Below, piece by piece: positions 4,601 to 10,600 of a stretch of DNA of 14,162 nt. Each line of letters opens with the position of its first letter. Position 1 is the first letter of the stretch. Location of the stretch: IMG/VR virus record IMGVR_UViG_2713896908_000004. The stretch is one strand, 5' to 3'. Position numbers: made by a program. Source of the stretch: a virus (taxonomy: Duplodnaviria; Heunggongvirae; Uroviricota; Caudoviricetes).

Positions 4601-7600
4601 ATGTAGCATATGGCGCAACCATTGCCATTGGTAATGATAAAACCTTCAATTCGGATAATGGCTTTGGTCTGCTGGCTCCCCGTGGTTTAATGCATATGTC
4701 CGATACAAGCGGATTCAAATACAAGATTTTTGCAGGTATGGAAAGACGAGATGTCAATCGCAACTATACTCTCGAAGGAAAAACAATACAGACGAAACAA
4801 ACAACAGTATCGCTAAACAAAACTGTTGATGAATATCAAGTTGGCGCAACAATTGGGTATGCACCTGTAGCCTTCACACTAGCATTTAATAAAGTAACAT
4901 CAGAATTCAAGACAGGGGATGACTATTCATTTATAAATGGAGCAATCACCTTCTTTTTTTAACTGAATTGAATTCAATCAAAATAACATAAGTCCAACAA
5001 AAACATAAAGTGCGAAATGAATGCTAGCTCCATTTATTTCGCACTATAAAAGATTAAAGGTTGCAATAAAATAATAAAATGACTCAGTTACGAAAACCAA
5101 TAAACTGTGGCCAGTAGTGAGTCGCTCATCATCGGGCTTTTTGGCGAATGAAATTTAGCTACGCTTTCGAGTCTCATGCGCCTTCTCCCTGTACCTGAAT
5201 CAATGTTAGGTTTCCGCAGAACACTGCGCCGGTATCGATATACATTTGGTTGGCAAATTTGAGTGGTTTCACTGCTGGCGTATGACCAAAGATGAACGTG
5301 TCCGCGCCTTTGATTTCTTTCACGATCCCGTCTTGTGAGTTGCTGATTCGTTCGCGATTCCAGATTACCTGCTGATTATCAACTGGCTTTCCAAACTCGT
5401 ATTCGTCACAAGGATAATCGGCGTGACAGATGACATATTTTTTATCTTTGCTCACCAGTTCGATGATTAATGGAAGTTCATCTGCTTTATAAGCAAGTGC
5501 TTTAACCAGAATTTCTTGGTCGTAATCGAGATTAAAGAACCAGCCGCCGCCATTAAGCAGCCAGTGATTGACGTTTCCACGCTCTGATAAGCCATCAATC
5601 ATCATTTGCTCATGGTTTCCACGTACCGCTCTGAACCAGGGGAATGTGATTAATTCCATGCATTCGACGTTCTCTGTACCGCGATCAACCAAATCGCCCA
5701 GCGAGATAAGCAGGTCTTTTTTGTTGTCGAATCCAATCGTATCCAGTTTGTTCATCAGGTTCGTGTAGCATCCGTGCAGGTCACCAACTACCCAAATATT
5801 TCGGTATTTGCTGCCATCAATTCTTTCGTAGATATTCATGCAACCTCACTTCTGCTGTTTCGCAGTTTTTTAAGTTTCTGTTGATACTCCGCCTTGATGG
5901 CCCTGCACTCTTCGACAGTCCAGCGATAGCGGTTATGGTTTGATTCGATTTCCTCTACTGCTTCCTGCCCGATGCGGCTAATCAGTTCGACGCGATACGG
6001 AACGAGATTTCCGCTTTTGTGCTGGTTGCACACCACGCATTGCTTGTGAATATTGCGTTCATCAAATCGGAGTTGAGGTGCCGCAGCAGTTGTCCGGTAA
6101 TGTCCGGCATCCCACTGAGCAGACGTGAGCGTTCCGCACGAGATACATGGTAAGTCGCGGTCTCTTTCTCTGATGAAGGCGTTTACGGCTTGTTGGGCTT
6201 GTTTAATCCAGTAACTGCGGGGCTTTAAGGCGAGTTTTCGAATCTTAAGTTTATCTTTCTGTTTCTGCTCCTCTCGTCGTCGTTTCTTCTCTGCTGCTTT
6301 TTCCGCTTTTTCGCGTTCTTTATTTCGTCGTTCGAGTGCTATCTTGGTTCCACACTCTGGAGAGCACCACCACTGATTAGCGAATGCAGGATGAAACCAT
6401 TCTCGACATTCATCGTTTTTACATCGTCTTCGCGCTGGTTTAGCCATCGTCTTCTTCCTCGTGCATCGAGCTATTCGGATCGCTCATCAGTTCTGCGCAG
6501 CAGTGCTCACACACGTGAACTTCCAGCACATGCAGCTTCTGACCGCAGTTAGCGCACGTTAAAGCTCGCTCGACGCTTTCTTGTTCGTAACTTCGATTTT
6601 GGTCAATCACCTTGTTTTCCTCGCACGATGTCTTAGCCACCTGATATCCCACAGGTGAGCCGTGTAATTGAAGGTTTTTACGTCAGATTCTTTTGGGATT
6701 AGCTTGCGTTTATTTCTGGAGCGTTTCGTTGGAAGGTATTTGCAGTTTTCGCAGATGATGTCGGTGAAACTTCGTCGCTGTCGCCTCATGCTGCCCTCCT
6801 GACGCCCTGCCCGATCGCCATCAATGCCGCTTTGGATACAGTAGTAAACATCCGTCGAGGACTGATGAACGGTCGCCAAATCAGCAGCATGGAACCTTTG
6901 CTGTTTCCCTTCTTCTCCAGCCCTGTCGATGGTTCGATAAAATTAATCCGTCCATCAGTGATGATGCGAACTTCGTCAACACTCTCCAGAGCCTTGCTGA
7001 ACCATCCGACAGACATATCCTCTGGCACAAGCATCACTACCGTCTGTCGTTGTTGTATGCACTGCTCAGCGGCTTTTTCCACCCACGGCCTGATATTGCT
7101 GTACGGTGGGTTATTCCAGATTGCACCGTGGCTTATCCACTCAGAATTTAGCGCGTCGTCAGCCTCAGTTAGCCAGTGAGCGCACAGAGCATTTTTGTCG
7201 CTCGCTGCCGAATCCAGCCAGAATCCAAACTCAATATCCAGCGCATCAAAAAGCCAGAGCGGCGTTTGCCAGCAGTCCTTGTCGTGTGATGGCGTATTTG
7301 ATTTGATAGTCATGCAGCCCTCCCTTTTCGTTGTGACCATTCATACTCTCGCCGGGAGTCATCACTCCACCGCACGTTGCGCTCTGCTCCGAACCAGAAC
7401 ATGATTTCGATAAGCTCAGTCATGTTGGCCTTTCGCATTTTGCTGGTACGCACGCCAAGCATGACAACGCCACCGTCGATACCAGGCACACTTCGTTGCT
7501 CTAGTTTTTTGGTCTTAAGCCACAGGGCAGTGAACAGGTCTTTCCAGTCCTCCGGCGCAAGTCTCTGTCCATGCCAAAGCACCTGACGTGATACGTCCTG

Positions 7601-10600
7601 CAATAACGCCCACATAAGGCGGTTTTGAGGATTACTCCGCCTGGGTTCTTTAACGTGGACTTCGTGAGGTGACTTGTCGTCGATGGGAAGTGAGAGTATT
7701 GCGTCTATGGCGTTATTTCTGATTGCTTCGTTGCGAAGCATGTATATTTGCTTCATCGAAATTCTTCTCTTTAATTCCAGCGGCTCTGATAGCTTTCATT
7801 ACTGCAATTACCGTTTTGTCTCTCCCATCCTCATAACCCATCGCATAAGCACCTTCTTCACCATCTTTCCAAAAGTCGTCATTCGATTCGGGCCAGTCGA
7901 TATCCAGTTCAATAGCTGCTCGCGATGCCTGCCACGTTTGCCAGTGGCCTTGAACATCGTCCATCACGTATTGACCACCAATATTACCGCTGCCAATTTC
8001 ATGGTGATTTTCAGGGTAACGGATAAGGTCTGAAGATTCGCCCCCACGTCGCAACCAACTTTCTTCAAACTGCTTTCTTGATTCGTCCATCGGTACTTAC
8101 CATCAGTTCAACTCACAAAACGCCACGCCATTTTTGCTACAGCGACAGGCGCAACACCGATAATCACCCACAGGAGAATGCTACCGAAAAGCACACCCAC
8201 CAGGTCTTTACCTTCGCCTACCAACCGGACAAAACAGCCAGCAACCACAATGAACGTCGCCACCATCCACATAGCACCGAGAAGCCTCAATGCAGAGAAA
8301 ATCAACTCAGCCACGATTTACTCTCCCCCAAATAAAAAGGCCTGCGATTACCAGCAGGCCTGCTATCAGCTCAGTGATGTAGATGGTCATCTTTTAACTC
8401 CATATACCGCCAATACCCGTTTCATCGCGGCACTCTGGTGACACTCCTTAAAAATCAGGTTCGTGCTCACCTTTCCTTCCCGTTCTTCTCTGGTAGCGAA
8501 CCGGTAATACACCGTTCGCCAGACCTTACCTTCGATAACCAGAAGACCTGCCCGTGCCATTTTAGCCGCGGCCTGATTTATGCTGGTTACTGTTGCGCCT
8601 GTTAGCGCGGAAACGTCCTGTGCACAGAAGCTCTTATGCGTTCCGAGGTAATGAATAATTGCCTCTTTGCCCGTCATACACTTGCTCCTTTCAGTCCGAA
8701 CTTAGCTTTAATTTCTGCGATCTTCGCCAGAGCCTGTGCTCGATTCAGAGGTCTGCCGCCCATGACAGGAAGTTGTTTTACTGGTTCAGGTATAGTCTCA
8801 CCACGGTTAATTCGTGCTGTCATACAGGTCAGTTCATCGGCAGCCTTGCGCCGTAATTCCGCGTCAGTCAGCGCATTGGCCCGCATGTTCTGGTACAGGT
8901 TGGTAACCAGCCAGTAGTGCGCGTTTGATTTCCACGGATAAGACTCTGCATCCGGATACAGGCCACGCTTCCGGCAATACTCGTAAACCATATCAACCAG
9001 CTCGCTGACGTTTGGCAGTCCGGCGATAACGGATGCTTCTTCCCGGCACCATGCAACAAACTGCCCGGGTGATGGCAGAAATGGTCGATTCTGCCGACGG
9101 GCTACGCGCATTCCTGCGTTAACCTGTTCCATTGTGGTGATCCCGTTTTCCCGGAAAGCCAGAACCCACTGGCGACGGATTTCGTTCACCTCGTTCTGGT
9201 CACGGTTAGCCAGGCTCGCCGGGAAAGTTGCCAGTAACTGGCTGAACACACCATTGATGATCTGCGCTACCTGCTGTACCTGCGGCTTTTCGTCGTACTG
9301 TTCCGGCATGTTGTTGGCGATTCGACGCATCTGCTCACGGTCAAAGTTAACCATCTGTGCGGCGATGTTTTTCATAAATCCACCCCGTAAATCCAGTCAG
9401 TGTTTGTCAGGTCGAGTTTTGGTTTGCTGGCTGTCACGCCTGCCTGTTGCTTGTTACGGTTGATTTCGAGCTGGGTCCACTTGTCGCGGAGTTTGGCCGG
9501 GCTCAGCACGTTACCGGACCAGAAGTTGTCCTGGCATGCCCAGCGGAACAGTACGCACATGTCGCGATGGTTACGTCCGTCACGTTCACGCATCAGGCGG
9601 ATATCGTTAGCCCACCCTGCAAAATTCGGTTTTCTGGCTGGTCGGAGGATTCGCCAGAATTCTCTGACGAATAATCTTTTCTTTTTTCTTTTGTAATAGT
9701 GTCTTTTGTGTCCCCCTGTTTTGAGGGATAGCAATCCCCCAATTTGAGGGATGTTTTATCCCTCGTTTTAGGGGATTTTCCCTCGTTTTGAGGGATACAC
9801 CATTCTGAGATGTTTTTATTTGGTCCAAATATGCCGCCTTGCTGCTTGATAATATTCATTCTGACGAGTTCTAACTTGGCTTCATTGCACCGTTTGACAG
9901 GTAACTTTGTAATCTCGCTAAGTTGAGAATCGGTGATTCTGTCCATTGGTTTATTCCACCCATAGGTTTTACGCAGAATGGCAAGCAGCACTTTAAACTG
10001 TCGCTTGGTCAGATCTGCGCCTGAATAAGCCTCAAGCAGCATATTTGATAGTCTGGCGTAACCATCATCGAGATCTGCCACATTACGCTCCTGTTCGGCA
10101 AAGTTACCTCTGCCGAAGTTGAGTATTTTTGCTGTATTTGTCATAATGACCCCTGTGGATTGATCCAGTAATCCCCTCAGAATTGCATATCAATTTGCTT
10201 AGAGTCCCCGGCGGCCACCGGGGATTTTTTCTTTGTGATTCCATCAAGCACATACTTAAAAGCCCTACTAATCGGACTGATGTCTGATGCCATTCCGAAA
10301 GCACACAAGACCGAAGCAATAAACCGCCAGTCCGTTCTGCTTATCTTCGATTCATGACAGCCAATCATCTTTGCCAGACCTCGCTGTGTAAGCGTTGACA
10401 GGTTGATGAGTAAATCTGTTTCTGCGCGATCAATTTCTCGCTGTGTTGGCTTGCTGTAACTTGCTTGTGCCATTTGTTAATTTTCCTATATTGATATGGA
10501 GTTATAGCGGCATACCCAGTGGATTTGCCGCTGATGTTTGCTCACCCGGTTAGAGGTGAAAGGCCAGAACTGTTAAAGAGCAATTTACTTATGCCGCTTG

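Follow-up and report, generated by a model that had tools for sequence, protein, structure and literature searches.

A phage "Dam"-family orphan methyltransferase gene predicted in the nin operon of a lambda-like prophage

The IMG/VR virus record IMGVR_UViG_2713896908_000004 (Duplodnaviria; Heunggongvirae; Uroviricota; Caudoviricetes) is a stretch of 14,162 nucleotides (nt) that was analysed as a whole and is called the window below. The element is a lambda-like prophage with probable imm21-type immunity and a 434-like right arm. Its block of nin genes includes a gene that is predicted to encode an orphan DNA N6-adenine methyltransferase of the phage "Dam" family (PF05869/TIGR01712). Sequence reading and the list of open reading frames (ORFs) place the whole gene set on the minus strand in the order ninB, methyltransferase, ninE, ninF, ninG, ninI. 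The initial annotation had noted a gene bearing an NPPY motif between ninB and ninE, where lambda was said to have ninC and ninD; the motif is found at residues 68-71 (7101-7112) of that gene, and the lambda gene order agrees. NinB, NinE, NinF, NinG and NinI were identified with Pfam and PHROGs, the PHROGs assignments concurring with Pfam for every gene of the block, while ninC, ninD and ninH are absent. The genes, with their lengths in amino acids (aa), are as follows.

7310-7756, minus strand: ninB (Orf recombination mediator), 148 aa, 933W/VT2-type allele; PF05772, 9.5e-49; phrog_72.
6786-7313, minus strand: methyltransferase, 175 aa, start ATG 7313-7311, stop TGA 6788-6786; PF05869, 7.2e-65; phrog_111.
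7101-7112, minus strand: catalytic motif IV of the methyltransferase, N68-P69-P70-Y71, encoded by AACCCACCGTAC (sequence reading).
6607-6789, minus strand: ninE, 60 aa; PF05322, 1.5e-41, model positions 1-58 of 58; 88% identical to lambda NinE.
6440-6610, minus strand: ninF, 56 aa, GTG start; PF05810, 1.6e-12; phrog_672; 56/56 residues identical to lambda NinF.
5836-6447, minus strand: ninG (Rap junction-specific endonuclease), 203 aa; PF05766, 3e-90; 96% identical to lambda NinG.
5174-5839, minus strand: ninI (Ser/Thr phosphatase), 221 aa; Metallophos PF00149; phrog_246; 95% identical to lambda NinI.

The methyltransferase matches Pfam PF05869 "Dam" with 218.2 bits (cutoff 28.1) over model positions 1-167 of 169, and the NCBIfam equivalog TIGR01712, "phage N-6-adenine-methyltransferase", with 263.6 bits (cutoff 97.05) over positions 1-165 of 165. 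Conservation was assessed in an alignment of the window protein with 40 relatives of 32-66% identity, taken from a library search that returned 8805 clusters, formed at 50% identity, of PF05869-type relatives at E ≤ 0.001. Within motif IV, this alignment shows no variation at N68 and P70, and conservation of at least 90% at P69 and Y71. The window protein holds all positions that are invariant or at least 90% conserved (W15, T17, P18, F31, D34, A37, W59, N68-P-P-Y71, L95, W104, R122, F125, N137, G140 and S141 are present), so that none of the conserved motifs whose absence would have spoken against the initial annotation is missing. The family motifs W-x-T-P at the N-terminus, F-x-x-D-x-A-A, G-R-x-x-F and N-x-K-G-S are all kept. 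F-x-x-D-x-A-A is a putative S-adenosylmethionine-binding motif, and the family-conserved positions may be assigned to the classical motifs I to VIII. The stretch between the D34-x-A-A motif and NPPY is only about 30 residues long, and the 175-aa protein has no separate target-recognition domain.

The term "Dam-type" applies to this enzyme only through the reported target, GATC, and the name of the Pfam family. The alpha-class Dam enzymes of E. coli and T4 (PF02086) share with it the reported GATC target and the N6-methyladenine product. However, they have no detectable homology to the window enzyme and carry DPPY where it has NPPY; the window enzyme is also about 100 residues shorter and lacks their inserted target-recognition domain. 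The Pfam scan gave no PF02086 match for the methyltransferase, and a sequence search of the PDB gave no homologue, with no Dam chain even at E ≤ 10; matches to solved structures were at the level of the fold only. The likeness to E. coli and T4 Dam therefore looks like convergence on specificity and not like common family membership, and the earlier label is kept for target and family name but not for a sequence relationship to these enzymes.

The enzyme is an orphan without a restriction partner, since both of its immediate neighbours in the Pfam annotation, NinB and NinE, are nin products and no restriction endonuclease gene adjoins it. NinG is a junction-specific nuclease and not a restriction enzyme. 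Two other methyltransferases were considered as relatives and ruled out. M.EcoPA8orf6770P/M.EcoGV is likewise a prophage-borne orphan of Shiga toxin (Stx) phages that is annotated as a GATC Dam homologue, but it belongs to the MT-A70 family, carries DPPW and is gp5 of the early-left region; it depends on a partner protein and acts preferentially on 16S rRNA (PMC10810198). The window gene is not an MT-A70 prophage rRNA methyltransferase of this kind, as it matches PF05869 only, has NPPY instead of DPPW and lies at another locus. M.EcoGIX, which is single-strand-specific with an SAY motif, is plasmid-borne and unrelated.

All five junctions between the six genes overlap, four of them by 4 nt and one by 8 nt.

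7310-7313, minus strand: overlap of ninB stop and methyltransferase start, ATGA, inside the conserved joint GGGCTGCATGA.
6786-6789, minus strand: overlap of methyltransferase stop and ninE start, ATGA.
6607-6610, minus strand: overlap of ninE stop and ninF start, GTGA; lambda has the same GTGA junction.
6440-6447, minus strand: overlap of ninF stop and ninG start, 8 nt, ATGGCTAA.
5836-5839, minus strand: overlap of ninG stop and ninI start, ATGA; a direct joint, as ninH is absent.

Sequence reading thus bears out the four ATGA or GTGA junctions and the 8-nt ninF/ninG overlap that had been described before. Lambda and 434 have one more ATG upstream, and their ninF/ninG overlap is 11 nt instead of the 8 nt of the window. 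Each downstream start has its own purine-rich Shine-Dalgarno sequence 5-9 nt on its 5' side: from the methyltransferase to ninI these are AAGGGAGGG, CAGGAGGG, GAGGAA, GAGGAAG and GTGAGG. The same junctions recur in phage 434, mEp213, VT2-Sakai and lambda, and the Pfam matches of NinB, the methyltransferase, NinE and NinG begin at the proposed starts or at most 4 residues from them; the pattern is therefore not due to chance. The mechanically derived ORF list began the methyltransferase at an upstream ATG, at 7340, which gives a protein of 184 aa. The ATG at 7313 is preferable: a strong Shine-Dalgarno sequence precedes it, the 434 and VT2-Sakai annotations start there, and in the resulting 175-aa form the family models match from residue 2-4 onward.

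The ATGA packing is a general property of the nin genes of lambdoid phages (PMC8022706), and lambda itself has stop/start overlaps at ninB/ninC, ninC/ninD, ninE/ninF, ninG/ninH and ninI/Q. As this packing is generic to lambdoid nin regions, the overlaps are uninformative on the methyltransferase in particular. Together with the Shine-Dalgarno sequence of each gene and the lack of conservation of the NinB linkage in other genera (below), they argue for compaction of the operon and not for a specific functional tie of the methyltransferase to recombination. It had been stated that the methyltransferase is co-translated with the recombination genes. The stop-start overlaps behind that statement are real; co-translation could only be inferred from them, since they are generic and each gene has a Shine-Dalgarno sequence of its own.

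Many database copies of the methyltransferase are truncated or fused to adjoining nin genes, for instance as Dam+NinE fusions of 233-235 aa; examples among the homologue clusters are P0001, P0024, P0041, P0053 and P0074. One Stx2 phage record, AP012530, annotates its copy as a pseudogene. Such copies suggest that in prophages the gene often decays or undergoes frameshifts at the ATGA joints.

Comparison with related phages places the gene between two breaks in homology. Homology to lambda ends at 8321 and resumes at 6782, just inside ninE. With 434, whose ninB allele is another one, homology sets in again at 7320, which is 7 nt upstream of the methyltransferase ATG. As these breaks coincide with both ends of the gene (7313-7320 and 6782-6789), the methyltransferase gene is a discrete mosaic cassette bounded by two ATGA joints. 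Lambda, 434, VT2-Sakai and the window all have GGGCTGCATGA at the 3' end of ninB, whichever gene follows. Exchange of mosaic cassettes is the normal mode of lambdoid phage evolution, and the methyltransferase is one interchangeable module of the nin region, set in the ninC/ninD slot of lambda.

Orthologues of 64-79% identity in other genera keep the position in the early region and 1-4-nt overlaps with their neighbours. The neighbours themselves are DUF1367 and NinF in Pectobacterium, a small unknown ORF and RusA in Edwardsiella, and unknown ORFs in Providencia; in Yersinia the gene stands at the end of a YqaJ recombination operon. A conserved partnership of NinB and the methyltransferase was therefore rejected, because the upstream neighbours in prophages of these four genera are other ones. 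"Base flipping" by NinB/Orf was also considered as a functional link to the methyltransferase and dropped, as PMC4118853 offers no such link; Orf and YbcN share no homology with methyltransferases (PMC4118853). Some Stx-type relatives have a gene like those of HNH homing endonucleases (NUMOD4 and HNH_3) between ninB and the methyltransferase (5403-5834 in L011 and 5402-6004 in L013), with a 4-nt overlap of the methyltransferase start in L013.

The position of the nin block is that of a lambdoid phage: it lies on the PR strand, 3' of O, P, ren and tR2 and 5' of Q. Cro, CII, O, P and Q were identified in the window by Pfam, the first four of them downstream of a PR-like promoter. The match between the window and lambda imm21 hybrids, about 97% identity over about 47% of the window length (5107-14162), suggests an imm21-like immunity region. 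Two transcription signals lie upstream of the block.

10805-10832, minus strand: PR-like promoter upstream of cro, TTGACT, 16-nt spacer, GATAAT (promoter scan).
8338-8361, minus strand: tR2-like intrinsic terminator upstream of the nin block, AGGCCTGC...GCAGGCCT followed by TTTTTATTT (terminator scan).

The promoter scan found the PR-like promoter to be the only consensus promoter on the minus strand upstream of the nin genes, and it found none on that strand between the tR2-like terminator and the methyltransferase, which lies about 3.5 kb downstream of the PR-like promoter. The segment 8321-8700, which holds the terminator, is 96% identical to the P-ren-tR2 region of lambda and 434, and the phage 434 record has a terminator annotated at the equivalent place.

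The replication gene O (9372-10144, minus strand) has a deletion of 127 bp relative to the O gene of phage 434. It lies between two 12-bp direct repeats, CAGCCAGAAAAC, of which the surviving copy forms the joint at 9629-9640. The deletion shifts the frame, so that O stops after 183 aa and its C-terminal part is left in another frame (ORF 9372-9734). In near-identical prophages O is intact, with 299 aa. When 5426 complete E. coli genomes were searched, none of the top hits matched the joint contiguously, and all of these hits have the undeleted gene; exact-pattern scans of species-representative genomes found neither this joint nor the ninB/methyltransferase joint. Since O is frameshifted by this deletion, the prophage is probably replication-defective.

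Phage 434 is close to the window in gene content and sequence. It has the same order, ninB, methyltransferase, ninE, ninF, ninG, ninI and then an LpxR gene on the opposite strand, and ninH, which stands between ninG and ninI in lambda and mEp213, is absent from both. Its methyltransferase (CPT_434_59) is identical to the window enzyme at 173 of 175 residues, and the DNA of the two is 97% identical from 7320 to 5100. The difference lies in ninB: 434 has a lambda-type allele, and the window NinB, 91% identical to that of VT2-Sakai, is only 46% identical to the NinB of lambda and of 434. The lambda region ninB-ninC-ninD-ninE-ninF-ninG-ninH-ninI-Q occupies the same position between P/ren/tR2 and Q, with the same ATGA/GTGA packing, and its DNA is 96-97% identical to the window from ninE to ninG and in ninI. 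In lambda the GGGCTGCATGA joint at the 3' end of ninB is used at ninB/ninC; ninC (PAPS-reductase-like) and ninD fill the methyltransferase slot, and the nin region has no DNA methyltransferase.

The VT2-Sakai enzyme, orf32 (NP_050531), is of the same length as the window enzyme and is also identical to it at 173 of 175 residues, with two conservative substitutions (S9/A and I60/V). The gene stands between ninB (upstream) and ninE (downstream), overlapping each by ATGA as in the window, and the "dam" genes of Phi24B, Min27 and Stx2 phage II are identical to it. Past ninE, however, the VT2-Sakai block is interrupted by ant and roi and followed by stx2, whereas in the window ninF, ninG and ninI follow directly. 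The same block is carried by mEp213, Stx2 phage 1717, Sf6, Sf101, HK544 and several hundred further phage records. Annotations of phage 434, mEp213, HK97-like, Sf6-like and Stx phages show the arrangement. Public assemblies contain the exact 175-aa protein in 2063 indexed blocks, and the entire gene order of the window recurs in prophages, L010 and L012 among them; the complete E. coli genome that matches best covers 68% of the window at 95% identity. The gene, its family, its reported specificity, its nin location and the ATGA packing are thus already known and routinely annotated, and the significance of the present case goes little beyond correct annotation. The enzyme is widespread in Shiga-toxin and other lambdoid phages, and genomes that bear it avoid GATC.

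The target of the window enzyme can be approached through its two relatives that were identified in this analysis as reported to be characterised, the only such members of PF05869. The first is M.EcoVT2Dam, which PMC6602927, citing Radlinska & Bujnicki 2001 (PMID 11720311), gives as known to target 5'-GATC-3'. By elimination, M.EcoVT2Dam is orf32, because orf32 is the only DNA methyltransferase annotated in VT2-Sakai; orf4, the one unassigned candidate that was scanned, is a DUF551 protein and not a methyltransferase. The second is the Dam of phage HP1 (orf13), a PF05869 member (250 bits) of 173 aa with NPPY and 38% identity to the window enzyme over 150 residues. It is the only methyltransferase annotated in HP1 and presumably the enzyme that was cloned as HP1 Dam (PMID 10581668). 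HP1 differs from the window element in being a P2-like and not a lambdoid phage, and its gene ends the early replication operon and does not stand beside nin genes. From the 99% identity to orf32 and the membership of HP1 Dam in the same family, the window enzyme most likely methylates the adenine of GATC.

The gene is most likely expressed in lytic growth alone, from PR, once antitermination at the tR2-like terminator allows it, to judge from the anatomy of the operon and from quantitative PCR (qPCR) in Phi24B. The "dam" coding sequence of Phi24B is 100% identical to VT2-Sakai NP_050531, and its expression pattern in that experiment is described as linked to the lytic cycle (PMC3342100). Upon induction or infection, N-antiterminated PR transcripts would read through the tR2-like terminator and make the nin block part of a delayed-early operon. 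Ribosomes leaving ninB could then reinitiate at the overlapping ATG or load afresh at the strong Shine-Dalgarno sequence. Host Dam leaves rapidly replicating phage DNA under-methylated, as in virions of P22, lambda and L (PMC8022706), and the phage enzyme would methylate GATC adenines on fast-replicating phage DNA while host Dam is limiting. This might shield progeny DNA, in the next host, from restriction enzymes that cut GATC and are sensitive to methylation, and might free the phage from dependence on the host Dam level. We put the probability of the molecular identity and expression model at roughly 0.85. Any particular biological benefit is proposed with much lower confidence, because no knockout data were found.

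Several points weigh against this reading. With O frameshifted, the lytic programme of this prophage may not complete, and we know of no knockout phenotype for the methyltransferase. GATC is 2.4-fold under-represented in the window, with 22 sites against 52.4 ± 6.2 expected from dinucleotide-preserving shuffles, every one of which had at least 22 sites; this would leave the enzyme few targets there. The scarcity agrees with PMC6602927, which notes GATC-poor prophage regions. The equation of M.EcoVT2Dam with orf32 was made by elimination and does not come from REBASE. The GATC specificity is derived from the literature through a secondary citation, and the 2001 assay presumably used overexpression; overproduced Dam-like enzymes may methylate off-target sites, as the authors of PMC10810198 warn.

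The deletion in O also bears on the alternative that the gene no longer has a function in this element and merely rides along in a prophage undergoing decay, its intactness meaning only that decay has yet to get that far. The deletion is absent from near-identical prophages and from the top hits among the complete E. coli genomes searched, and truncated or fused methyltransferases are frequent in the homologue clusters (P0041, P0053 and P0074), besides the pseudogene of AP012530. But the reading frame of the window gene is complete, its family-conserved residues, Shine-Dalgarno sequence and ATGA junctions are intact, and its protein is identical to copies in functional-looking prophages. A recent deletion in O is moreover uninformative on the activity of the enzyme, and transcription from PR after induction would still express the gene. 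We consider a mere passenger unlikely.

The main role of the enzyme could instead lie in the lysogen, where expression at a low level would supplement or modify host Dam and tune prophage stability or host genes. The Phi24B product was found by an immunoscreen of lysogen cultures, and the authors of that study speculate on a supplement to Dam in lysogeny (PMC3342100); stable lysogeny of 933W reportedly needs host Dam (Murphy et al. 2008, cited in PMC3342100). The qPCR of the Phi24B study nevertheless ties expression to the lytic cycle, in other words to a subpopulation that is induced spontaneously (PMC3342100). In addition, the window gene lies downstream of the tR2-like terminator, in a cI-repressed operon and with no consensus promoter of its own on its strand, and E. 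coli hosts already carry dam. A principal role in lysogeny is accordingly quite improbable, and lytic expression from PR is preferred.

It is very unlikely that the physiological substrate is something other than GATC in DNA, such as a relaxed or different motif, single-stranded recombination or replication intermediates, or RNA. The idea draws on the prophage "GATC" enzyme of REBASE that prefers rRNA with a partner protein and on the caution about overexpression (PMC10810198), on the lack of a separate target-recognition domain in a protein of 175 aa, and on the size and diversity of PF05869 relative to its two members reported as characterised. The rRNA precedent, however, is a different gene of a different family (DPPW, MT-A70, early-left operon), whereas the window gene has NPPY and matches PF05869 only, and both characterised members, 99% (VT2) and 38% (HP1) identical to it, are reported as Dam. 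Least probable of all, by a small margin, is the stronger proposal that this minimal enzyme, at its native and translationally coupled level, is not a simple GATC "Dam copy" but acts on replication or recombination intermediates that Orf and Rap make (for example single-stranded or hemimethylated DNA) or with relaxed specificity, the GATC activity of 2001 being an effect of overexpression; were it true, a very common nin-region methylase would be functionally uncharacterised despite confident annotation. Methylation of GATC by a lytically expressed orphan remains the preferred reading.

Other features of the window lie around the nin block. A 125-aa ORF (7713-8090, minus strand; phrog_343) overlaps the ninB start by 44 nt, unlike the 4-8-nt overlaps at the other junctions. 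The same 44-nt overlap is present in the relatives L010 and L012. The ORF had no match in the Pfam scan, and PF26207 is given in precomputed annotations of relatives. Between ninI and Q, on the opposite strand, lies a gene for an outer-membrane lipid A deacylase of the LpxR family (4003-4962, plus strand), which looks like a moron; phage 434 has such a gene in the same position. The Q antiterminator gene is at 2841-3614, and three tRNA genes follow downstream at 1545-1776 on the minus strand (Thr-tgt, Arg-tct and Met-cat), adjoined by an ORF for a membrane protein of 249 aa (1920-2669) that had no match in the Pfam scan. On the plus strand, an N-like ORF at 11790-12125 has an arginine-rich stretch, GTAKSRYKARRAELIAERR, which we take to be of the phage 21 N type, and the lambda cIII thermoregulator RNA element RF01804 was found at 13674-13732 (plus strand) with 88.5 bits.

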